DNA of 63,209 bases, filler included, from Desulfonatronovibrionaceae bacterium (GCA_046539845.1; 5 parts of 5 records of this genome joined end to end with filler, not necessarily neighbours in it); one strand, 5' to 3'. Counted from the whole stretch's first letter, positions 11,453 to 54,903 are shown. Made by a program: numbers and translations. The notes: a model not told the origin generated them from the sequence alone.

Positions 11453-12589
11453 ATGCTTAGAAAAATTATTCGACTGGTAACCCTTGGGGCGTTTGTTTTG
11501 GCTTTTGCGGCCTCTGCGGCCTGGGCCGGGCCTATCAAAATCGGCCTTATGTGTCCGTTAACTGGTTCCTGGGCCAGCGAGGGGCAGGATATGGAAAAGA
11601 TAGTTAAACTCCTGGCCGAGGATATAAACAAAAAGGGTGGTCTGTTGGGCCAGGAGGTGGAGATCGTGGTCGAGGATGACGGCGGGGACCCGCGCACTGC
11701 TGCCTTGGCCGCACAGCGTCTGTCCACCAGGGATATAGTGGCGGTCATCGGGACCTACGGTTCCTCGGTTACCGAGGCCACGCAAAATACCTACGATGAA
11801 GCCGGGATCATCCAGCTGGCCAACGGCTCCACCGCCATCCGACTCACCCAGAAGGGCCTGGACAAATTTTTCCGTACCTGCCCCAGGGACGATGAGCAAG
11901 GCAAGGTGGCGGTAAAGACGATTGACGATATGGGCTTCGATCAGGTGGCTATCCTGCATGACAATACCACCTATGCCAAGGGGCTGGCAGACGAGGCCAA
12001 GAAGCTATTGTCCAAGCAGGGCGATGCGGATGTGGTCTTTTTTGACGCCCTTACTCCCGGCGAGAGGGACTACAGTACCCTCTTGACCAAAATGAAGTCC
12101 AACAAGCCAGACGTGGTATTTTTTACCGGCTACTACCCCGAGGCGGGCAGGCTTTTACGCCAGAAAAAGGAAATGAATTGGAATGTGCCCTTTATCGGCG
12201 GGGACGCAACCAACAACCCGGATCTGGTTAAGATAGCCGGCAATGATGCTGCCAAAGATTTTTACTTCCTGAGCCCGCCTGTTCCCCAGGACCTTTTCAC
12301 CCCGCAGGCCGAAGAGTTTTTGGACAGCTACAAGGAAGAGCACGGTTCTGTTCCCGGCTCGGTGTGGGCGGTTTTGTCCGGGGACTGCTTTCTGGCGATA
12401 ACCACCGCCATCAAAGAGACCGAATCCACTGATCCGGATGTCCTGGCCAAATATCTGCACACCGAACTAAAGGACATGCCCGGGTTGACCGGCAAGATAT
12501 CCTTTAACCAGGACGGTGACCGCACCGGCGACCTCTACCGTCTGTATCAGGTAAATTCCCAGGGGGAATTTATCCTGCAGACCGACTAG
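11453..12589 (+). CDS. livK: Branched-chain amino acid ABC transporter substrate-binding protein
   Basis: Signal peptide, IKIGLMCPLTG, EDDGGDP, FFRTCPRDD; AGGAGG RBS. Confidence 0.9.
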   Translation: MLRKIIRLVTLGAFVLAFAASAAWAGPIKIGLMCPLTGSWASEGQDMEKIVKLLAEDINKKGGLLGQEVEIVVEDDGGDPRTAALAAQRLSTRDIVAVIGTYGSSVTEATQNTYDEAGIIQLANGSTAIRLTQKGLDKFFRTCPRDDEQGKVAVKTIDDMGFDQVAILHDNTTYAKGLADEAKKLLSKQGDADVVFFDALTPGERDYSTLLTKMKSNKPDVVFFTGYYPEAGRLLRQKKEMNWNVPFIGGDATNNPDLVKIAGNDAAKDFYFLSPPVPQDLFTPQAEEFLDSYKEEHGSVPGSVWAVLSGDCFLAITTAIKETESTDPDVLAKYLHTELKDMPGLTGKISFNQDGDRTGDLYRLYQVNSQGEFILQTD

Positions 12590-14147: not shown

Positions 14148-14247
14148 NNNNNNNNNNNNNNNNNNNNNNNNNNNNNNNNNNNNNNNNNNNNTTAATTAAT
14201 TAANNNNNNNNNNNNNNNNNNNNNNNNNNNNNNNNNNNNNNNNNNNN
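14148..14247. other. Artificial contig linker
   Basis: N44-TTAATTAATTAA-N44, stops in all six frames. Confidence 0.98.
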
Positions 14248-27944: not shown

Positions 27945-28044
27945 NNNNNNNNNNNNNNNNNNNNNNNNNNNNNNNNNNNNNNNNNNNNTTAATTAATTAA
28001 NNNNNNNNNNNNNNNNNNNNNNNNNNNNNNNNNNNNNNNNNNNN
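27945..28044. other. Artificial contig linker
   Basis: N-run with TTAATTAATTAA. Confidence 0.97.
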
Positions 28045-41710: not shown

Positions 41711-41810
41711 NNNNNNNNNNNNNNNNNNNNNNNNNNNNNNNNNNNNNNNNNNNNTTAATTAATTAANNNNNNNNNNNNNNNNNNNNNNNNNNNNNNNNNN
41801 NNNNNNNNNN
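41711..41810. other. Artificial contig linker
   Basis: N44-TTAATTAATTAA-N44. Confidence 0.98.
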
Positions 41811-45517: not shown

Positions 45518-46340
45518 ATACAAAGGCATCTACTGGTTCATGCACCACGGCGTTCTCTTGCCTCTTACGCCTCCTCATGCGGAGATAGAACTCAACCGGA
45601 GTGAGCAAGAGGAGTTGTTAAAAAAAACAGGCGCCAGATTTATCCGCTGGACCAATCATTTTGACAAGGATGATTCCGCGTTCTGGTATATCATAAAGGA
45701 TTTCTTCGGCGGGCTGGAAGAGCTGAGCTCAAATACGAGGAGCAAGATCCGTCGCGGCCAAAAAAAGTTTGCCGCCGGTCCGGTCACCTTCAATCATTTG
45801 CGAACCGAAGGATATCAGACTTATATTAATGCCTTTCAACGCTTCTCCACCTTTGAACAGCCGGTAAACAAAATACAGTTTGAGAAGCATGTTTGCATGC
45901 TGGAAGAGTCCGGAGTTTACGAGATATGGGGGGTCTGGGATAAGCCGAGCAAGAGGCTGGCCGGATTCAGTGAAAATCTGATACTCGGCCCTACCTGCTT
46001 TTACGAGACCATCTATTTTGATCCTTCCTACTTGAAAAATTATTCCAGCTATACCCTGTTCTACGAAATGAACCACCATTACCTGCAGGCAAAGGGATTC
46101 AGGTATGTGCATGACGGCAGCCGGAGCCTGTCTCATGATACCAATATCCATGATTTCCTTATAGACAAGTTCAAATTTCGGAAAGCCTATTGTGATCTGC
46201 ATATTGCCTATAGATTTGATGTTGCCATGCTGGCAAGAATCTTATTCCCGCTGCGGCGATTTTTGTATACAAGGAGAGGCCCAATAGGAAAGAGACTGTC
46301 TGTTCTCCTGCGGCATGAAGAAATCAGAAGGTGTTCATAA
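45510..46340 (+). CDS. Hypothetical GNAT/FemAB-like acyltransferase
   Basis: LEELSSNTRSKIRRG (FemAB/GNAT-like helix), YSSYTLFY, FKFRKAY. Confidence 0.6.
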   Translation: MFEYKGIYWFMHHGVLLPLTPPHAEIELNRSEQEELLKKTGARFIRWTNHFDKDDSAFWYIIKDFFGGLEELSSNTRSKIRRGQKKFAAGPVTFNHLRTEGYQTYINAFQRFSTFEQPVNKIQFEKHVCMLEESGVYEIWGVWDKPSKRLAGFSENLILGPTCFYETIYFDPSYLKNYSSYTLFYEMNHHYLQAKGFRYVHDGSRSLSHDTNIHDFLIDKFKFRKAYCDLHIAYRFDVAMLARILFPLRRFLYTRRGPIGKRLSVLLRHEEIRRCS

Positions 46341-47242
46341 TGCGCAGAGACTCGGCTTTGATGCCGGTACTGCGGTTTTTGCAGGAAAAGTACAAGTACT
46401 TTGGTTTCCTTGACCGTCTTGTCCGTCCTTTTTTAAACAGGCAAGGCGATATTGGTCTGGTATGCATTTTGGCCCCTCCAAGAAGCGGCTCCACCCTTAC
46501 TTACCAGGTACTTTCTTCTGCTTTCCGCGGTTACAGCCTGAGAAACATATCCAATTTTTTGTATGCAACTCCTGTAATAGGTTATTTGGCCACGAGAAAA
46601 CTTTGTGGGCATTATGAAAGTACCTTCTGCTCCAATCATGGTTTTGTGTCCGGTATGTGCGGTGAGGCAGAGGGATTGAGGTTCTGGCGGCACTGGCTTG
46701 GTCAGGGCTTGGAGCAAAATTCAGAGCTGCTGGCTCCCGAAAAGCTCCGGGAGCTGAAGCAGGCGTTGGACAGGACCGGTGCGGACTTTATGATAACCGG
46801 CTATCTTGGGCATGTTTTCGCCATCTCCGTTCTGAGAGAGGTCTTTCCCAGAGTTTTGTTTATCCACTTACAAAGAGATCTTTTGTCTAATGCTTATTCC
46901 CTCCTGAAATTGACCCCGGAGTCTGCACCATTTTCTATATGCCCCGCCGGGTTGAAAACAGTGGCTTGCGATAGCAGGCACCGTTTGGTGGTGGACCAGG
47001 TACGCGGCATACACGAGCTTATTTTTTCTGAATATGGTTATGACATGCTGACGGTCAACTATGAGGATTTATGCGCTGATGTCCGCGGGACCTTAAGCCG
47101 GATCGAGCGCAAGGCCGGGAGCCTGGGGATGCCCCTGTGCAGAAGAGACAGCGTGCCGGATTCGTTTCCTAAGCAGATGGTAGAGCCCGATCAGGATGAA
47201 GATGCTGCGCTTTTAAAGCGAATAATTTCTAAAGAGGAGTGA
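46340..47242 (+). CDS. Sulfotransferase family protein
   Basis: 5'-PSB loop APPRSGSTL, 3'-PB motif HLQRD...NAYS, VNYEDL; TAATG coupling to the upstream gene. Confidence 0.8.
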   Translation: MRRDSALMPVLRFLQEKYKYFGFLDRLVRPFLNRQGDIGLVCILAPPRSGSTLTYQVLSSAFRGYSLRNISNFLYATPVIGYLATRKLCGHYESTFCSNHGFVSGMCGEAEGLRFWRHWLGQGLEQNSELLAPEKLRELKQALDRTGADFMITGYLGHVFAISVLREVFPRVLFIHLQRDLLSNAYSLLKLTPESAPFSICPAGLKTVACDSRHRLVVDQVRGIHELIFSEYGYDMLTVNYEDLCADVRGTLSRIERKAGSLGMPLCRRDSVPDSFPKQMVEPDQDEDAALLKRIISKEE

Positions 47243-47271: not shown

Positions 47272-47299
47272 CCCGCGAATCACGCGAATAGCCGCGAAT
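47272..47299 (+). repeat. Heptamer-triplet repeat, forward copy 1
   Basis: CC-CGCGAAT-CA-CGCGAAT-AGC-CGCGAAT. Confidence 0.9.
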
Positions 47300-47394
47300 T
47301 GAATATCTTTAACCTGCCGCAGCAATGGCTGGCAGACTAAAGCTCTTACCTCCGAGTGACCGGGGGACGGGGCCTAAGTTATAGAGATATTCTT

Positions 47395-47420
47395 ATCAGC
47401 GCCAACCTGCGTAATCAGCG
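47395..47420 (-). repeat. Heptamer-triplet repeat, reverse copy 1
   Basis: Minus strand CGCTGAT-TA-CGCAGGT-TGG-CGCTGAT. Confidence 0.75.
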
Positions 47421-47470
47421 CTTTAATATCCAAACGAGGATATTAGCGGAGTGAAAAGAGAAGATGAATT

Positions 47471-47500
47471 GGCCCGCGAATTACGCGAATCTAAGCGAAT
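47471..47500 (+). repeat. Heptamer-triplet repeat, forward copy 2
   Basis: GGCC-CGCGAAT-TA-CGCGAAT-CTA-AGCGAAT. Confidence 0.9.
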
Positions 47501-47538
47501 GGTGGATAAAAGGGGCCTGAAGCCTGGTTGGGAACAAA

Positions 47539-48159
47539 ATGGTTGAAAGCACTCATGGACTTGGCCTTGGTCAGAGATTTGCCAAGCGCGGCTTGGATCT
47601 GCTGGGGGCTGCTTTGGGTCTGGCCTTTACCTTGTGGATCATTTTGCCTGCTTGGCTTTTGGCCAGTCTGGATACGCGCAAAAACGGATTTTTCACCCAA
47701 GATCGGGTGGGCAGGGACGGTCGTGTTTTCCGGGTCATAAAGATCCGGACCATGCGGGATGTGCCCGGGATGGACACTACAGTGACCACCGGCACGGACC
47801 GGCGGATAACAAGGCTTGGCCGCTTGTGGAGAAAAACCAAGATTGATGAACTCCCGCAATTGATAAATGTGCTCAAGGGGGATATGAGTTTTGTCGGTCC
47901 CAGGCCGGATGTGCCCGGATACGCGGATCGGCTTGAGGGTGAGGACAGGATTGTCTTGAGTGTCCGTCCGGGCATTACCGGACCGGCGACCCTTAAATAC
48001 CGCAATGAGGAAAAACTGCTCGCAGAGCAGGAAAATCCCCGGCAGTACAACGATGAGGTGCTCTGGCCGGACAAGGTGCGGTTGAACCGGGAATATGTCC
48101 GGAACTGGTCGTTTGGAACGGATCTTAGATACATATGGAAAACGATTGTCAGCGGATGA
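47539..48159 (+). CDS. Priming phosphoglycosyltransferase (PglC-like)
   Basis: KRGLDL, KIRTM, KIDELPQLINVLKGDMSFVGPRP, RPGITG. Confidence 0.93.
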   Translation: MVESTHGLGLGQRFAKRGLDLLGAALGLAFTLWIILPAWLLASLDTRKNGFFTQDRVGRDGRVFRVIKIRTMRDVPGMDTTVTTGTDRRITRLGRLWRKTKIDELPQLINVLKGDMSFVGPRPDVPGYADRLEGEDRIVLSVRPGITGPATLKYRNEEKLLAEQENPRQYNDEVLWPDKVRLNREYVRNWSFGTDLRYIWKTIVSG

Positions 48160-48183
48160 CAGTGATCGCTTCAAGGGGATTAT

Positions 48184-50424
48184 ATGGGTAAGAAAAGCCG
48201 TAGAAAGGCGCAGGATAAGACTCAGGCCGAAGAAAAAACCGGAGGAAAAGGCGGACCGGAGGACTCCTTTGCCCCGGCTGCAGCGCCGCAGATGCCAAAA
48301 CCAGGCAAGGCAGCCGGGCAGATACTTATGCTCTGCATTCTGGTCTATGCACTCAATCTGGTCTTCAGGCTCTTTGAGCTTCCGGGCTGGAGTGCTCCGG
48401 GGATGCAGTTTAACGGCGAGTATCTCATGGCCACCCATGATGCCTACGCCTGGCTGGCCGGGGCGGAAGGGATCAATCGTAAGACCGGTTCTGCCCTGAG
48501 CGGGCTGCTCAAGCTGCTGCACGGAATTTTCGGGTTCAAGACAGCCAATATTGGTTTTTGGCTGCCGGTGATTATCGCCCCCCTGGCCGCTTTACCCCCG
48601 GCCCTTTTGGCCTGGAAAAAGAAACAGCCTGAAGCCGGTCTTGTCTCCGGAGTAATGGCTGCCGGCTGTCTGGGCTATCTTCTGCGCACCAGGCTGGGGT
48701 TTTTGGATACGGACATAGTGGCTCTTTTTTTCCCCCTGGCCATTGCTTGCTCACTTGTCCTTTGGCTCTCCGGCATTTGCCGGAGGGAATGGAAAAGGGA
48801 TAAATTCGAGTCCGCGGCGAGCTTGAATCCGCTTTTGTTCCTCCTCGGGGCGGTGGGCATCGGACTCCTTATATACGGGTACGACTGGTTTTATAAGCCC
48901 CAGGTGGCCCTGGCCCTGGCCGGGACTGCTTTTGCCCTCGGATTGGTTTTAGCCCCGGTTAAAAAATACAGGCTTTTTATCTGCGGGGGCTGTATCCTTT
49001 TTATCTGCGGATTCGGGGGTGTTCTCGGGCTTGCAGCCGGATTGGCCGCCTGCGGGGTGTTTGTTTATCGACCGGATTTTCTGGATAAATGGTCCGGTAT
49101 CGGGGTCCTGGGGGCAGTAACCTTGATATTGGCCGGACCGGACATGTTTTCTGCTTTATTCAGCGCCGTATACAAGGTACTCGGGTATGCCAAGCTCACA
49201 CCGGCCGAGTCCGTGGGCAATGCCTCCCTGGATCTGCCGGCTATCGCCCAGAGCGTGCGCGAGGCTCAGAATGTGAATTGGGGAGCCATGTTCTCCCGCA
49301 CCGCAGGCGGATGGTGGATATTCTGGCCCGCTTTGGCCGGGTATGTGTATCTGGTCTGGAAAAGACCGCTGTTTATAGTTTTTTTGCCCCTTTTGGGACT
49401 AAGCATAGCCAGTGTAAAGCTCGGCAACCGTTTTGCCATGTTCGGGGGCGGGGCCCTGGGGATCGGCCTGGCCTTCGGTGTGAACCGCCTTCTTCTGGAT
49501 TTTGGGCAGTCCCGCCTCAGGCGCTGGCTGGCCCAGATCATTCTGGCCCTTCTGGTTACCTGGCCGCTTTTGAATGTCTCTCTTAATTTGAAGCCTTCGC
49601 CGATTCTGCCCCCGGCCTACGCCAAAACTTTTGCCCAAGTTGGGGAAAAGGCGGGGCCGGACGCCCAGCTCTGGCAGTGGTGGGATTATGGATACGCCGG
49701 GCAGTACTATGCCCAAAGACGCGTCTTCGGAGACGGTGGGCAGCATGGAGGCAAGTTCCTCTACCCCCTGGCCCGGGTGCATACCACGGATTCGCCGTTG
49801 CAGGCGGCGCAGCTGATGAAATTCACCCTGCATGCCCAGCTTAGGCAGTATAAGGAGATGGAGGAAAACGGCACTTTACCTGTGCAGCGGGGTGAGGCCC
49901 AAAATTATCCTGGAGATCCGGTGAAACCGCTTCGGGAGATGGGTAGGGAAAAGGCCCGGGAGTATGTAGAATCCATGAAGAACAAACGTTACTCCTGGCC
50001 AGAGCTGCCCGAGCAGTACCTGGTCCTTTCCTGGGATAATATCCGTCTTTCCTATTGGATCAGTTTCTACGGGACCTGGGATCTGGTCTCCGGAAACACC
50101 TTTCCGGGCCGGTTGCAGCGGGTGACCTCGGACATCCGCCTGGATTCAGGCCAGGGAGTTTTGCATCTCAGGGATGGGAGGACCGTGCCCCTTAAAAGCA
50201 TTGATTATCTGACCGAGCAGGGTAATCAGAAAAAAACATGGACAAATGCCGGAGGGGTGCATGCGGTCTTCAATACCAAAAGGCGGGAGCTGTTTCTCAT
50301 GGATGATAAGATTTATGATTCCCTTATGGTCAGAATGCTGATTGGCGATCCGGGGAGATTCGAAGAGCATTTTGAGCTGGTGGTGGATAACTTCCCCCAC
50401 AATCGGGCTTACAGGGTGAAGTGA
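48184..50424 (+). CDS. pglB: Oligosaccharyltransferase STT3/PglB
   Basis: Multi-TM; THDAY, GFLDTD, SVRE (TIxE/SVxE), WWDYG, DGGQH. Confidence 0.9.
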   Translation: MGKKSRRKAQDKTQAEEKTGGKGGPEDSFAPAAAPQMPKPGKAAGQILMLCILVYALNLVFRLFELPGWSAPGMQFNGEYLMATHDAYAWLAGAEGINRKTGSALSGLLKLLHGIFGFKTANIGFWLPVIIAPLAALPPALLAWKKKQPEAGLVSGVMAAGCLGYLLRTRLGFLDTDIVALFFPLAIACSLVLWLSGICRREWKRDKFESAASLNPLLFLLGAVGIGLLIYGYDWFYKPQVALALAGTAFALGLVLAPVKKYRLFICGGCILFICGFGGVLGLAAGLAACGVFVYRPDFLDKWSGIGVLGAVTLILAGPDMFSALFSAVYKVLGYAKLTPAESVGNASLDLPAIAQSVREAQNVNWGAMFSRTAGGWWIFWPALAGYVYLVWKRPLFIVFLPLLGLSIASVKLGNRFAMFGGGALGIGLAFGVNRLLLDFGQSRLRRWLAQIILALLVTWPLLNVSLNLKPSPILPPAYAKTFAQVGEKAGPDAQLWQWWDYGYAGQYYAQRRVFGDGGQHGGKFLYPLARVHTTDSPLQAAQLMKFTLHAQLRQYKEMEENGTLPVQRGEAQNYPGDPVKPLREMGREKAREYVESMKNKRYSWPELPEQYLVLSWDNIRLSYWISFYGTWDLVSGNTFPGRLQRVTSDIRLDSGQGVLHLRDGRTVPLKSIDYLTEQGNQKKTWTNAGGVHAVFNTKRRELFLMDDKIYDSLMVRMLIGDPGRFEEHFELVVDNFPHNRAYRVK

Positions 50425-50453
50425 GGCCGCGGATTACGCGAATGGCCGCGAAT
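50425..50453 (+). repeat. Heptamer-triplet repeat, forward copy 3
   Basis: GGC-CGCGGAT-TA-CGCGAAT-GGC-CGCGAAT directly after the pglB TGA. Confidence 0.9.
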
Positions 50454-50472
50454 GAAGAGGGGGCCTCACCGC

Positions 50473-50505
50473 CCGGGACGAGAGCGGAATGTCCCGGAGT
50501 TTTTT
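50473..50505 (+). terminator. Terminator-like hairpin before the TA promoter
   Basis: CCGGGAC...GTCCCGG-AGTTTTTT. Confidence 0.55.
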
Positions 50506-50521
50506 CATTAGTTATTTGTCC

Positions 50522-50566
50522 TTGACATTAGTGTTATTTTGTACAATATTTTTGTACAAAATAACA
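50522..50566 (+). promoter_or_regulatory. TA promoter/operator
   Basis: TTGACA (50522-50527); perfect 15-bp inverted repeat TGTTATTTTGTACAA-n5-TTGTACAAAATAACA with two TGTACA cores, as in YefM-type operators. Confidence 0.75.
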
Positions 50567-50584
50567 ATCGCAAGGAGCAAGGTT

Positions 50585-50818
50585 ATGAAAGCAATGAATA
50601 TTTCCGAAGCCCGGCAACGCCTTCCCAGCTTGATATCTGAACTGGTGGTCTCAGGGGAGGAAGTGACTATCATTAAGCATGGGAAACCGGTTGCCAAGCT
50701 GGTAATCTACACTCCGGAAGAAGAGCAAAATAATTACCCCCTCCGTGGCCTCACATTTCAAGTGCATGGTGATTTTGACGCTCCGCTTCCAGATATGTGG
50801 GAGGCTCTGGAGGAATGA
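50585..50818 (+). CDS. Phd/YefM-family antitoxin
   Basis: MNISEARQRLPSLI..GEEVTIIKHGKPVAKL; AAGGAG RBS. Confidence 0.9.
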   Translation: MKAMNISEARQRLPSLISELVVSGEEVTIIKHGKPVAKLVIYTPEEEQNNYPLRGLTFQVHGDFDAPLPDMWEALEE

Positions 50819-51210
50819 TTGTCCTTGATACTCATGTGTGGCTTTGGTGGCTGCACAATCCTGATCATCTCTCTGCATCCGCCCAAGAAAAAATCGCTCA
50901 TGAAGAAAAGCTGCACGGTCTAAAGCTATCTGTTATTTCGGTTTGGGAGGTGGCAATCAAGGTCCATATCGGGAAACTTATCTTGCCCATGGACTTTGAT
51001 TCCTGGTATGCTGCCGCTCAGTCCTATCCAGGTATTAACGTCGAGCCCCTGTACCCCTTTGATGCCATAGAAAGCACGCGCCTTCCTGGTACTTTCCATA
51101 AAGACCCTGCTGATAGAATTATTGTAGCCCTGGCTCGGCGCTATGGGGCCCCTTTGGTGACCTGCGACCGGAAAATTCGGGAGTACAACCATGTCCAGAC
51201 TGTCTGGTAA
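50815..51210 (+). CDS. vapC: VapC-family PIN-domain toxin
   Basis: IVLDTHVWLW, SVISVWE, HKDPADRII, LVTCD; ATGA overlap with the antitoxin. Confidence 0.92.
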   Translation: MIVLDTHVWLWWLHNPDHLSASAQEKIAHEEKLHGLKLSVISVWEVAIKVHIGKLILPMDFDSWYAAAQSYPGINVEPLYPFDAIESTRLPGTFHKDPADRIIVALARRYGAPLVTCDRKIREYNHVQTVW

Positions 51211-51212
51211 AT

Positions 51213-51240
51213 ATTAGCGTTGATTAGCGTTATTAGCGGG
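51213..51240 (-). repeat. Heptamer-triplet repeat, reverse copy 2
   Basis: Minus strand CC-CGCTAAT-AA-CGCTAAT-CAA-CGCTAAT, starting 2 nt after the vapC TAA. Confidence 0.88.
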
Positions 51241-51260
51241 AAGAAAAAGAGTAGAAGAGT

Positions 51261-51290
51261 GGCCCGCGAATTGCGCGAATAAGCGCGAAT
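51261..51290 (+). repeat. Heptamer-triplet repeat, forward copy 4
   Basis: GGCC-CGCGAAT-TG-CGCGAAT-AAG-CGCGAAT. Confidence 0.9.
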
Positions 51291-51304
51291 GAAGAAGGAA
51301 ATCT

Positions 51305-52483
51305 TTGGTTATAAATAAAAGAATATATCTTTCCCCTCCGCATATGTCCGGGGAGGAGCAAAAGTTTGTCTCCGAGGCCTTTGCCTCGAACATGATTGCT
51401 CCACTCGGTCCGCAAGTGGATGCCTTTGAGCGCGAATTCGCCGAATTTACCGGCTGGAAGCACTGCCTAGCCCTTTCTTCCGGAACAGCGGCCATGCATC
51501 TGGTGCTCAGGCATTTGGGGATCAGGCCCGGGGACGAAGTCCTGGCCTCCACATTGACCTTTATCGGCAGCGTTTCCCCGGCTGTAATCGAAGGCGGAGG
51601 ACTGGTATTTATTGATTGTGATCAGCACACCTGGAATATGCACCCCGGTCTGCTCGAAGCGGAGCTTAACAGGCTGGCTGAGAGGGGGCAGCTTCCCCGG
51701 GCCGTGATTCCCACGGATTTGTATGGTCAGTGCTGTGATTATGATGCGCTTTTCGATGTCTGCCAAGGGCATGGAGTTCCGGTCATTATTGATGCGGCCG
51801 AGTCTCTGGGGGCCGAATACCGCGGCCGCAAAGGCACGCTTGCCGCAGGCCGGGCCGGATATGCCGCGGTGTATTCTTTTAACGGCAATAAGATCCTGAC
51901 CACCTCTGGCGGGGGGATGTTGGCCTCGAACGACAGGGAGCTTATAGACCATGCCCGCAAGCTCTCCCAGCAGGCCCGGGAGCCTCTCCCTTATTACGAA
52001 CACACCGAACTTGGCTTCAATTACCGCATGAGCAATATCCTGGCCGGAGTCGGCCGGGGGCAGATGCGGGTGGTGCCGGAGCGGGTGGCAAAGAAGAGGG
52101 AGATTTTCAGCTACTATAAGGAAAAATTGGCCGGAGTCCCGGGGATCGATTTTATGCCGGAAGCAAAATACAATAGATGCAGCCGGTGGCTGAGTGTCAT
52201 CCTTGTGGACCGGGAGGAATTCGGAGCCGGGCCCGAGGATATCCGCCTGGCCCTGGAAAAAGAAAACATCGAGTCCAGGCCGGTGTGGAAGCCCATGCAT
52301 CTGCAGCCGGTGTTTGGGAAAAAAGGGGCCCGGGCCAGGCCGGTGGGCGGAGAGAACTCGGAGCTACTTTTCCAACGCGGTCTTTGCCTGCCTTCGGGCA
52401 CGCAATTAACTTTTGCGGACCTTGAGCGAATATCCGCAATAATCAGATCCTGCTGTCCCAAATCCCGGATTGTCGATTCATGA
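51305..52483 (+). CDS. DegT/DnrJ/EryC1/StrS aminotransferase (PglE-like)
   Basis: IYLSPPHM, SSGTAA, DAAESLG, SFNGNKILTTSGGG, GFNYRMSN; TTG start uncertain. Confidence 0.92.
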   Translation: MVINKRIYLSPPHMSGEEQKFVSEAFASNMIAPLGPQVDAFEREFAEFTGWKHCLALSSGTAAMHLVLRHLGIRPGDEVLASTLTFIGSVSPAVIEGGGLVFIDCDQHTWNMHPGLLEAELNRLAERGQLPRAVIPTDLYGQCCDYDALFDVCQGHGVPVIIDAAESLGAEYRGRKGTLAAGRAGYAAVYSFNGNKILTTSGGGMLASNDRELIDHARKLSQQAREPLPYYEHTELGFNYRMSNILAGVGRGQMRVVPERVAKKREIFSYYKEKLAGVPGIDFMPEAKYNRCSRWLSVILVDREEFGAGPEDIRLALEKENIESRPVWKPMHLQPVFGKKGARARPVGGENSELLFQRGLCLPSGTQLTFADLERISAIIRSCCPKSRIVDS

Positions 52484-54384
52484 ACACAATACGCTCTCAG
52501 CTGGCCAACCCCAAATTCTATATAATGCTTTTAAGCGACGCCCTGTTGGTGGCGGCGGCCTTGATGTTCGCATATCTGCTGCGTTTTGATTTCGTGCCCG
52601 GCCGGTATATGCACCAGGCACTGGTCCTTGTCCCCTTTGCGGTCACAGCCAAGGCCTTTTTCTTTTTCGTATTCGGTCTGTACCGCGGTATGTGGAGGTA
52701 TACCAGCCTGGAAGACCTGGTCCGCCTTTTTCTGGCCTCACTTCTCGGAGAGACCCTGCTTATCGCCGGCATAGCTTATTTATTCCGCTTTTATGGTTTT
52801 CCCCGCTCAGTTTTCGGGATTGATTTCTTTTTGACCCTTTTTCTGTGCGGGGGGCTGCGGGTGGCCATAAGGAGCTACTTTGCCTGGCGCAGAGGGGCTT
52901 TGGTCCCGTCCAGCCTGAGGATGCCTTTTATGCCTGCCTCAAGAGGGGGGCAGCCGGTCTTGATAGTCGGGGCCGGGAATGCCGGGGAAAAGGTGTGCCG
53001 GGAGATCCTGGAGCGCAAGGACACGGGCTTGAGCCTGGTCGGCTTTGTGGATGACGATCCGGATAAGATCAACCGTTTGATTCATGGAATCCCGGTATTG
53101 GGTGCGGTGCATGAATTATTGGATATTTGCGCCTCCTATCAAATTCGGGAGGTCTTTATTGCCCTTCCTTCCGCATCCGGGCAAAAGATCCGGCTGATTG
53201 TGGAGACATGCGAGGCGGCCGGGGTCAGATATAAGATATTGCCTGGTATTGGGGAGCTCATGGAGGGCAAAGTCAGTGTGAAGCATCTTCGGGATGTGAA
53301 TTACACAGACTTGCTCGGGCGTCCGGAGGTGGAATTGGATGACCGGGAAATAGCCGCATATATCGCCGGGAAAACGATCCTGGTTTCCGGGGCCGGCGGC
53401 TCGATAGGATCCGAGCTTTGCCGCCAGATTTTGCAGTTCAATCCGGGACATATAGTGCTTTTGGATTCCTCGGAGGCCAAGTTGTATTCCATTCAGATGG
53501 AACTGTGGCACGAGCGCTCTTTTCATGAGCTGACCCCGGTTTTGGGGCAGTGCCAGGACAAGGACCTTGTCGAGGATGTTTTTGCCCGGATAAAGCCGGA
53601 GGTGGTATTTCACGCTGCGGCCTACAAGCATGTTCCCCTGTTGGAGGAAAATCCCTGGCAGGCGGTGGAAAACAATATCCGGGGGACCTTTGTCCTTATG
53701 CAGGCTGCATGGGACGCCGAAGTGGAACGTTTCGTGGTTGTCTCCACGGACAAGGCGGTTCGTCCGACCAATGTCATGGGGGCAAGCAAAAGGGTGACCG
53801 AACTCCTGATGCATGCCTTTCCCGGGGGGGGCACCCGTTTTATGGCTGTTCGTTTCGGCAATGTCCTGGGCTCCTCGGGCTCGGTCGTTCCCCTTTTTCG
53901 CCGTCAGATAGAGCACGGCGGGCCGGTGACCGTAACCCATCCGGAGGTGACCAGATATTTCATGACCGTGGAAGAGGCCACTCAGCTGATCCTCCAGGCC
54001 GGGTCCATGGGCAGGGGAGGGGAGATATTTATTCTCAAGATGGGTGTGCCAATTAAAATAGCGGATATGGCCCGGGACTTGATCCGTCTTTCCGGAAAAG
54101 AGCCGGAAAGAGATATAGATATTGTCTTTACCGGGCTAAGACCGGGCGAAAAATTGTATGAGGAGCTTATCACCGAAGGAGAGGGCATTGTTCAGACCAT
54201 GCATGAAAAGATCATGGTCCTGGAGTCGGAAAAGGATTCCCTTGTTCGGGGTGACGGTTTTCAGGAAAAAATGTGCCGGGCTGTCAGTGACCTGGAGGAT
54301 TGCGCCCGGGCCAGGGACAAGAAGACAATCCAAGCTAAATTCTTAGAAGTTGTGCCTGAGTATAGGCCGGGTGGTGAAGAGTGA
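52480..54384 (+). CDS. UDP-GlcNAc 4,6-dehydratase (PglF/CapD-like)
   Basis: Four N-terminal TMs, GAGGSIGSE, FHAAAYKHVP, STDKAVRPTNVMGASK, RFGNVLGSSGSV. Confidence 0.94.
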   Translation: MNTIRSQLANPKFYIMLLSDALLVAAALMFAYLLRFDFVPGRYMHQALVLVPFAVTAKAFFFFVFGLYRGMWRYTSLEDLVRLFLASLLGETLLIAGIAYLFRFYGFPRSVFGIDFFLTLFLCGGLRVAIRSYFAWRRGALVPSSLRMPFMPASRGGQPVLIVGAGNAGEKVCREILERKDTGLSLVGFVDDDPDKINRLIHGIPVLGAVHELLDICASYQIREVFIALPSASGQKIRLIVETCEAAGVRYKILPGIGELMEGKVSVKHLRDVNYTDLLGRPEVELDDREIAAYIAGKTILVSGAGGSIGSELCRQILQFNPGHIVLLDSSEAKLYSIQMELWHERSFHELTPVLGQCQDKDLVEDVFARIKPEVVFHAAAYKHVPLLEENPWQAVENNIRGTFVLMQAAWDAEVERFVVVSTDKAVRPTNVMGASKRVTELLMHAFPGGGTRFMAVRFGNVLGSSGSVVPLFRRQIEHGGPVTVTHPEVTRYFMTVEEATQLILQAGSMGRGGEIFILKMGVPIKIADMARDLIRLSGKEPERDIDIVFTGLRPGEKLYEELITEGEGIVQTMHEKIMVLESEKDSLVRGDGFQEKMCRAVSDLEDCARARDKKTIQAKFLEVVPEYRPGGEE

Positions 54385-54405
54385 GAAAGACAAGAGCTTT
54401 CTGGA

Positions 54406-54431
54406 GGCTGATCGCGTTGATTTGCGCCGAT
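54406..54431 (+). repeat. Heptamer-triplet repeat, forward copy 5 (degenerate)
   Basis: GGCTGAT-CG-CGTTGAT-TTG-CGCCGAT, same 7-2-7-3-7 spacing, 21 nt after the PglF-like stop. Confidence 0.65.
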
Positions 54432-54582
54432 CAAAAATAGGGATTAACAGGCCGCTCTTAAGTTTCCAGATTGAGACGTTGCTACAGTAAGTGTAAATTT
54501 TTGCCTACGGATAGCTGTGTAGCCTTGCCCTTGTCGATTTTTGAGGGCCTTCCGGTTAAGCCAAATCATAAAACGCTTTAGT

Positions 54583-54767
54583 CTCTCGCCCCCTCGAGGA
54601 CTCGGTAGAGCCGCCAAGGAAGAGTGGAGAGAAGACAGTTTTTCCTCTTGTTCCTTCGGAACATGAGGAAAAGTTCTCCGCGCGGGGCGCGGGGAAGATG
54701 ATTTTTTCTCCTCTCTTTCTCCTGCCTTTGCTCTGTGCCTTGAGCGACCCTTGGGAGCGGGCGTGAG
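54583..54767. repeat. Palindromic MITE-like intergenic element
   Basis: Imperfect terminal IR CTCTCGCCCCCTC / GAGCGGGCGTGAG; central hairpin TTTTCCTC.TGTTCC-TTC-GGAACA.GAGGAAAA. Confidence 0.5.
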
Positions 54768-54803
54768 CTTTTCTTTCTTTGCCTCTCGCCTCCGGCACTC
54801 AGA

Positions 54804-54903
54804 NNNNNNNNNNNNNNNNNNNNNNNNNNNNNNNNNNNNNNNNNNNNTTAATTAATTAANNNNNNNNNNNNNNNNNNNNNNNNNNNNNNNNNNNNNNNNN
54901 NNN
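54804..54903. other. Artificial contig linker
   Basis: N44-TTAATTAATTAA-N44. Confidence 0.98.

Follow-up and report, generated by a model that had tools for sequence, protein, structure and literature searches.

Phased heptamer triplets at the junctions of a pgl-type glycosylation locus as probable ends of mobile GxxExxY-gene elements

The described systems closest to the repeats considered here are miniature inverted-repeat transposable elements (MITEs) with their autonomous insertion sequences (IS), integron arrays, REP/BIME/REPIN repeats accompanied by RAYT enzymes, and tandem heptamers of the TAACTGA type. We analysed a stretch of 63,209 nucleotides (hereafter the window) from the genome of a Desulfonatronovibrionaceae bacterium (GCA_046539845.1), in which a pgl-type N-glycosylation cluster, containing also glycosyltransferase genes according to profile matches and located on a 13-kb contig (C54), carries between its genes seven 26-bp units composed of three phased direct heptamers. 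These triplets, called arms and numbered F or R for forward or reverse orientation, are interpreted, with a probability of about 0.6, as the cis-acting termini of selfish elements driven by the protein GxxExxY; this protein would likely bind the heptamers in their phased arrangement, cut DNA and place copies at gene junctions or existing hairpins.

With MITEs and autonomous IS the arms share terminal inverted repeats, coexistence of full and gene-less forms, cargo between the ends and near-identical copies at unrelated loci, but the gene between them codes for GxxExxY and not for an enzyme of the DDE, HUH, serine or tyrosine class, comparison of junctions and copies at 75–93% identity gave no target-site duplication, and nesting and in-place replacement are frequent. 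A possible likeness to integron arrays lies in imperfect-hairpin sites directly repeated in this lineage between small genes, often toxin–antitoxin (TA) pairs. The attC core motif of integrons is RYYYAAC...GTTRRRY; it is absent, by inspection, from the back-to-back arm pair R2–F4 of the window, the best match to IntI (TIGR02249) in this genome stays below cut-off (82 of 265 bits), co-variation is missing between the spacers and the neighbours of most sites are ordinary genes, so that identity with an integron is rejected. As far as the available text of the RAYT reports goes (PMC2817692; PMC8049555), the likeness extends to a gene flanked by two inverted repeats (for GxxExxY, in relatives and not in the window), to co-variation of repeat and enzyme, with more repeats where the gene is present (in genomes that are kin and not independent), to gene-less hairpin doublets scattered in intergenic DNA and to BIME-like alternating arrays, seen here in loci L055 and L054 and in the window. 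There are differences as well: the enzyme here has a PD-(D/E)XK fold and about 125 amino acids and is not an IS200/IS605-related tyrosine (HUH) transposase, the arm is formed by three phased direct heptamers whereas the REP repeat is a palindrome, and a single genome can harbour several GxxExxY elements from more than one clade while RAYTs are described as single-copy and vertically inherited. Enzyme class and repeat structure rule out a RAYT-based identity. TAACTGA-type heptamers are likewise intergenic and patchy across phyla, and their mobility is discussed in the available text (PMC4679880), but they have period 7 without spacers, and the period-7 repeats encountered here accompany four-helix-bundle genes, not GxxExxY; neither "four helix" nor "endonuclease" is mentioned in the main text of that paper as available. 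For PF13366 (PDDEXK_3), the family of GxxExxY, the function is given as Unknown, transfers are noted to be multiple and clades to be mixed, and repeats or mobility are not tied to it in the available part of the source (PMC3424549); in the accessible text of another report GxxExxY appears in the context of a reverse-transcriptase annotation (bioRxiv 10.1101/2021.01.26.428298). No description of the present repeats was found in the literature searched, which comprised few subscription journals and no supplements.

Arms bracket GxxExxY genes specifically, their type follows the protein clade, and near-identical units stand at unrelated loci. The minimal full element consists of arm, gene and arm, spans about 450–500 bp and contains GxxExxY as the only gene between the arms. 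In the acidobacterial locus L129 a PF13366/TIGR04256 gene lies inside inward-facing arms of the window type (CGCGAAT/CGCTAAT, 9/10 period, leading C), and the window arms themselves have the heptamer, period and leading C by which the GxxExxY-associated arm family was defined in this analysis. Triplets with periods of 8–10 were found at a distance of ≤250 bp from 35 out of 46 GxxExxY genes (of 56, 6 to which the triplet had led and 4 whose flanks were short were set aside), facing inward on both sides in 23/46. A looser flank detector placed arms at 40/52 GxxExxY genes versus 1/105 ordinary control open reading frames (ORFs), while the stricter first version gave 15/51 versus 0/231, its low yield being due to allowing the 9/10 period only, which was widened afterwards. 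The original prediction named both GxxExxY and four-helix-bundle genes as neighbours of similar triplets; the former link held, and the latter did not, since triplets accompany only 3 of 30 four-helix-bundle genes (both sides in 0/30), whereas period-7 tandems, a separate repeat family, occur at 22/30 of these and at 0/46 GxxExxY genes. This rules out the four-helix-bundle gene as the partner of the triplets. The inverted period-7 tandem heptamers bracket four-helix-bundle genes on at least one side in 22/30 and on both in 14 (L349–L378), apparently as a second, parallel system built around a different protein; a copy of the gene with an internal stop was noted at 12241–12552 of contig C37 of this genome (L015 6140–6590), and at the orthologous site of genome G001 the same period-7 flanks enclose a TA-like gene pair.

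Co-occurrence with a nuclease family, proposed as a check, was found at the genome level. Among 251 sampled genomes of the phylum, 87 possess GxxExxY and 55 contain a slightly wider triplet pattern, and the gene is present in 40/55 triplet-positive versus 47/196 triplet-negative genomes; this association persists within four-helix-bundle-positive genomes (31/39 versus 38/90), while the corresponding link of four-helix-bundle genes (39/55 versus 90/196) vanishes within GxxExxY-positive ones, all these counts coming from genomes that are kin and not independent, so that p-values overstate. When 77 GxxExxY proteins are arranged in a tree, the arm label changes 17 times against a shuffled mean of 34.7, a value as low being reached in 0/200 shuffles, with labels assigned automatically, "none" for 14 of the 77, a few derived from weak doublets and nine close Geothrix rows adding to the clustering. 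Heptamer endings cluster by protein clade across phyla, and different GxxExxY clades within one genome carry different arms.

Mobility is evident from the comparison of copies drawn from 31 GxxExxY regions: three at unrelated loci are 96–97% identical over 464–473 bp and further pairs 88–98%, in line with the MITE-like mobile ends originally assumed. Orthologous junctions, in turn, gain, lose and swap content at the arms. Between queC and dut of Geothrix, 12 loci with that gene order comprise 7 full elements, 4 gene-less hairpins and 1 empty junction, and in 7 of these loci queC ends at a stop codon provided by the arm flank. Another junction of Geothrix, compared in 30 orthologues, has arm hairpins belonging to six heptamer types as classed by eye (one decayed) in 24 and an ordinary GC hairpin in the remaining 6. 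In genus g33 one species bears at a given site an element of CGCAGAT type, inside whose arms two further species have another element nested, intact or decayed; nested arms were met also in other phyla, and two further junctions exchange full and gene-less forms. At one and the same junction, relatives carry a full element, an arm–loop–arm hairpin, another arm type, nested arms or nothing. In 66 F–R pairs located within 150 bp of each other the identity of spacers was 0.61, 0.38, 0.50, 0.39 and 0.32 against shuffled values of 0.37, 0.33, 0.34, 0.27 and 0.30, far from 1, and selection for a perfect hairpin is rejected; spacers so weakly shared between paired arms fit better with protein sites on double-stranded DNA. 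A hairpin of another kind, with a C-run and a G-run, was observed in frame inside a histidine-kinase-like gene (L250, about 1110–1145, and orthologues) in three g33 species, being longer in one of them and absent in two others.

In GxxExxY the catalytic-type residues E, D, K and Q are invariant and the ExK glutamate is at least 90% conserved (21 sequences). The predicted structure (pLDDT 94.7) has only PD-(D/E)XK nucleases as neighbours, such as Cas4, lambda-type exonucleases and Hjc, none of which stands out; no Foldseek match was obtained at E≤0.001, and the best Z was 7.9. Under the reading preferred here GxxExxY would bind the heptamers on double-stranded DNA, leaving spacer bases free, and cut near the element ends; new copies would land at gene junctions, preferring places inside or beside existing hairpins, and arrays of arms would thereby build up and collapse. 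In L082 and similar loci the GxxExxY ORF begins within the upstream arm, which thus encodes its first residues, an overlap that could serve autoregulation. At the pgl operon arms would have accumulated at the junctions, and the triplets of the window are likely gene-less leftovers of GxxExxY elements of about 470 bp, a kind of element present in many bacterial phyla. More tentatively, and with the odds leaning against it as a whole, GxxExxY may represent a new class of stand-alone PD-(D/E)XK mobilising enzyme with clade-specific arms and insertion into hairpins or junctions without target duplication, whereby abutted R–F ends would shuffle TA pairs, ATPases and small genes as cassettes in variable loci such as the present operon and the four-helix-bundle/period-7 repeats would form a parallel system with another enzyme.

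The seven units were all recovered where they had been reported, in the same orientation and intergenic, and no other site of the window has ≤4 mismatches, which bears out the earlier remark that none occurs elsewhere in it. Scored against a slightly widened consensus, the triplets at 47274, 50428, 51265 (all forward) and 51213 (reverse) have no mismatches, those at 47475 (forward) and 47395 (reverse) one, and that at 54406 (forward) three; the strict pattern initially proposed is matched exactly by only 4/7. Since 30 third-order Markov simulations of the window gave a chance mean of 0.0 sites at ≤1 mismatch (0.1 at ≤3), six copies are certainly non-random, and the triplet at 54406 is probably a decayed copy. 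The 7-2-7-3-7 geometry is present here, but it belongs to one subfamily, as the period varies by subfamily and other arm types have periods 8/8, 8/9, 9/9 and 10/10.

Along the plus strand, the stop codon of a sulfotransferase gene (46331–47242; PF13469) is followed after 31 bp by arm F1 of CGCGAAT type (47274–47299), at a junction whose 47-bp orthologue in the relative G003 lacks arms. A 95-bp non-coding loop (47300–47394) separates F1 from R1 (47395–47420, minus strand; CGCTGAT type); by alignment and BLAST, the close relative L243 diverges from the window at about 47341–47344, having other repeat DNA upstream of that point, and contigs of run X5 break inside the loop at 47344–47348. A lone minus-strand CGCTAAT heptamer (47442–47448), revealed by single-heptamer scan and overlooked by the original prediction, is likely a remnant of a reverse arm; it stands 26 bp before F2 (47475–47500), with the spacing of R2–F4. 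F2 precedes by 38 bp the gene of a PglC-like bacterial sugar transferase (47539–48159; PF02397), after which come the PglB/STT3-type oligosaccharyltransferase gene (48184–50424; PF21436, PF02516) and, 3 bp past its stop, arm F3 (50428–50453). Next are a predicted sigma-70-like promoter (50522–50550; 10/12 in a consensus scan), whose TTGACA region is common to TA homologues, and a type II TA pair comprising a Phd/YefM antitoxin (50585–50818; PF02604) and a PIN-domain, VapC-like toxin (50815–51210; PF01850). Arm R2 of CGCTAAT type (51213–51238, minus strand), located 2 bp past the toxin stop, faces F3 over 759 bp and is joined back to back, through a purine-rich 26-bp spacer (51239–51264), with F4 (51265–51290), after which GAAGAAGGA stands just upstream of the degT-like start. 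The DegT-family sugar aminotransferase (51305–52483; PF01041), the PglF-like nucleotide-sugar dehydratase (52480–54384; PF02719) and the decayed F5 (54406–54431) complete the series. The R2–F4 unit is repeated at 76–82% identity on 5 other contigs and at F2 and folds as an imperfect hairpin (z -3.78); an Rfam search returned only two chance-level matches and no family. The order forward arm, insert, reverse arm, short spacer and forward arm does occur twice as claimed, but the first "cargo" is the 95-bp non-coding loop, around which F1 and R1 differ in heptamer type. Apart from the arms, other repeat types at 54580–54803 reach the contig end, have copies on contigs C12 and C22 and in relatives, and show high contig depth in other metagenomes. 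N-TTAATTAATTAA-N linkers occupy 14148–14247, 27945–28044, 41711–41810 and 54804–54903, where the five contigs of the window were joined artificially, so that adjacency across them carries no meaning.

Comparison with relatives shows the arms of this locus in different states. G003 has none between the sulfotransferase gene and pglC; its pglC–pglB junction, in contrast to the armless one of this genome, does have them, and at its pglB–degT junction an ATPase-like gene (called from a Walker A motif by eye, with no NCBIfam match) lies between directly repeated composite arms of ~125 bp and of other types. A close metagenomic relative has R1 and F2 in common with the window and diverges within the F1–R1 loop, and a contig of run X4 contains a similar TA pair followed by 477 letters (versus 96 here) before degT. 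F3 and R2 bracket the TA pair at the position of the nuclease gene in a full element, and the pair could thereby become exchangeable. Among 200 genomes of the order, however, 0/5 homologous TA pairs have these arms, which does not support the pair as an arm-bounded cassette; the closest homologue (85%) belongs to a pgl locus whose repeats are of a different kind. Content thus turns over at these junctions, but it is apparently the surrounding arms that are exchanged, without the TA pair moving along with them, and a passenger role of the pair, with arms gained and lost on either side, is the more likely one; because of the five armless homologues, its capture as a cassette is rated plausible and no higher. 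Back-to-back R–F pairs of window type have 21–26-bp spacers in seven cases from three genomes of this family, a length close to two 12-bp conserved outer flanks, and could represent abutted ends of tandem or circular forms. In run X5 a joint leads from 51240 to 50427 with 22 letters between, which may be another genomic R–F pair. A metagenome scan with the PglB C-terminus yielded 3 loci, none of which extends past pglB in a close strain. The neighbourhoods of pglB (L228–L241) hold, depending on the species, varied small genes that we take, by eye and from motifs, to be TA pairs, a four-helix-bundle-like gene, a RAYT-like gene and nucleotidyltransferase-like pairs.

In the genome as a whole, 7 of the 65 contigs carry sites with ≤2 mismatches, 18 in number; 7/18 belong to glycan loci (C54 and C22), and the rest adjoin TA genes, a thioesterase gene, a WYL-domain cluster and other genes. 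Of the 18 sites, 11 are within 2 kb of a contig end, where 11% of bases are located. The pattern is present in 24/41 related genomes, in which the reversed control pattern gave 0 matches. A scan of species genomes revealed at least 126 loci, 80 of them with flanks, in Verrucomicrobia, Chloroflexi, Planctomycetes, Acidobacteria, Bacteroidota, Proteobacteria, Spirochaetia and others, mostly intergenic, often directly after a stop codon and for the most part flanking no small cargo. A surface-glycan transferase adjoins 4/73 of them (after dropping 5 overlapping or duplicate loci and 2 without usable ORF), a lower bound given the crude ORF calls and about half of the ORFs without family at threshold; other neighbours include rpoB–rpoC, aspS, groEL and nuo genes. 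In 23 loci from relatives in the order, about one third are next to small variable genes, among them TA and restriction-type ones, and a single locus is next to a sugar epimerase gene. The presumed specificity for glycan loci is therefore unsupported, neighbours across bacteria being mostly unrelated genes, although the window's own locus is still site-dense. Viral contigs gave 12 exact triplet matches, none with an adjoining GxxExxY, and a DNA search of plasmids with part of the L129 element gave no match.

A number of observations weigh against the attribution of the arms to GxxExxY. The gene has no match in 15/55 triplet-positive genomes, one with 62 triplets, and lies ≤3 kb from just 4/80 sampled triplet loci, so that most arms are gene-less. 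The window contains no GxxExxY gene; the sole one of this genome (C57) falls in a clade with other arms, for which reason the arms of the window look orphaned, and no cognate remnant was found in this assembly of 65 contigs, with the mentioned share of sites near contig ends. Similarity between copies stops 3–25 bp outside the arms with no consistent terminus, in the best three-copy set it ends at the outer repeat of another family, and target-site duplications were not found. To this are added the labelling weaknesses of the tree, fold Z-scores all below 8 with no subfamily singled out, the five homologous TA pairs devoid of arms, and the fact that co-variation of arm and gene is also expected from plain linkage in a unit moved by another enzyme. 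As separate observations, the genome with 62 triplets (G204) is 97% complete and offers a test case for gene loss or another mobiliser, and the C57 gene, located after a pilC-like one, has on its two sides the copies of a ~55-bp direct repeat (L022 1348–1400 and 1860–1915), inside the second of which the contig ends.

The lack of observed target-site duplications, together with insertions that nest in loops and replace resident content, would also be accommodated if a nuclease cut hairpins or cruciforms of the arms and host double-strand-break repair copied in the gene or other DNA, arms being then targets and patches of homology and not transposon ends. Hjc resolvases and Cas4/lambda-type nucleases among the fold neighbours agree with such homing, as does one junction whose gene region is nearly identical in two species while the whole locus is 92% identical; the fold matches are not specific, though, and homing by itself neither accounts for arms reaching new unrelated sites nor explains junctions at which the relatives' counterpart is a plain terminator-like hairpin or lacks a spacer altogether; we regard it as unlikely. 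Rather improbable is the proposal that arms are RNA hairpins kept by the host as terminators, stabilisers or translation signals and spread by another trans-acting enzyme such as a HUH transposase, with GxxExxY as the most frequent passenger. Arm hairpins do take the place of the relatives' terminator-like hairpin between convergent genes, one of them folds strongly as DNA (z -10.65), the queC stop codon is supplied from arm flanks, and two Y1_Tnp matches are present in this genome; a mere passenger would nevertheless not be expected to match the arm type clade by clade, nor to be so cleanly separated from the four-helix-bundle repeats, and the spacers are free of pairing constraint, and no Rfam family was matched.

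Least probable among these appears a mechanism in which back-to-back R–F pairs act as hairpin recombination sites and a recombinase moves cassettes, possibly as circles. The narrow range of the R–F spacer, the folding of R2–F4, the joint of run X5 and the directly repeated sites that separate TA pairs on contig C44 of this genome and in arrays of G003 and G001 speak for it; it is confronted with the lack of IntI and of the attC core, with R–F spacer bases unpaired between the arms (identity 0.14–0.40, at or below shuffled values), with TA homologues without arms, with the other possible source of the X5 joint and with most sites across bacteria flanking no small cargo. Arms as ends of elements run by GxxExxY remain our preferred explanation.

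For the protein family the arms offer a cognate DNA substrate and a code linking clade to sequence, and a protein of 125 aa with a site of 26 bp makes binding, cleavage and mobility directly testable; a large family listed as of Unknown function would gain a testable role. If GxxExxY indeed mobilises these elements, repeat ecology of the REP/RAYT style arose also with an unrelated enzyme fold. Many intergenic repeats of environmental bacteria that now lack annotation, together with breaks in their assemblies, would then be accounted for as one large class, and so would part of the small-gene turnover at loci for surface glycans and defence.

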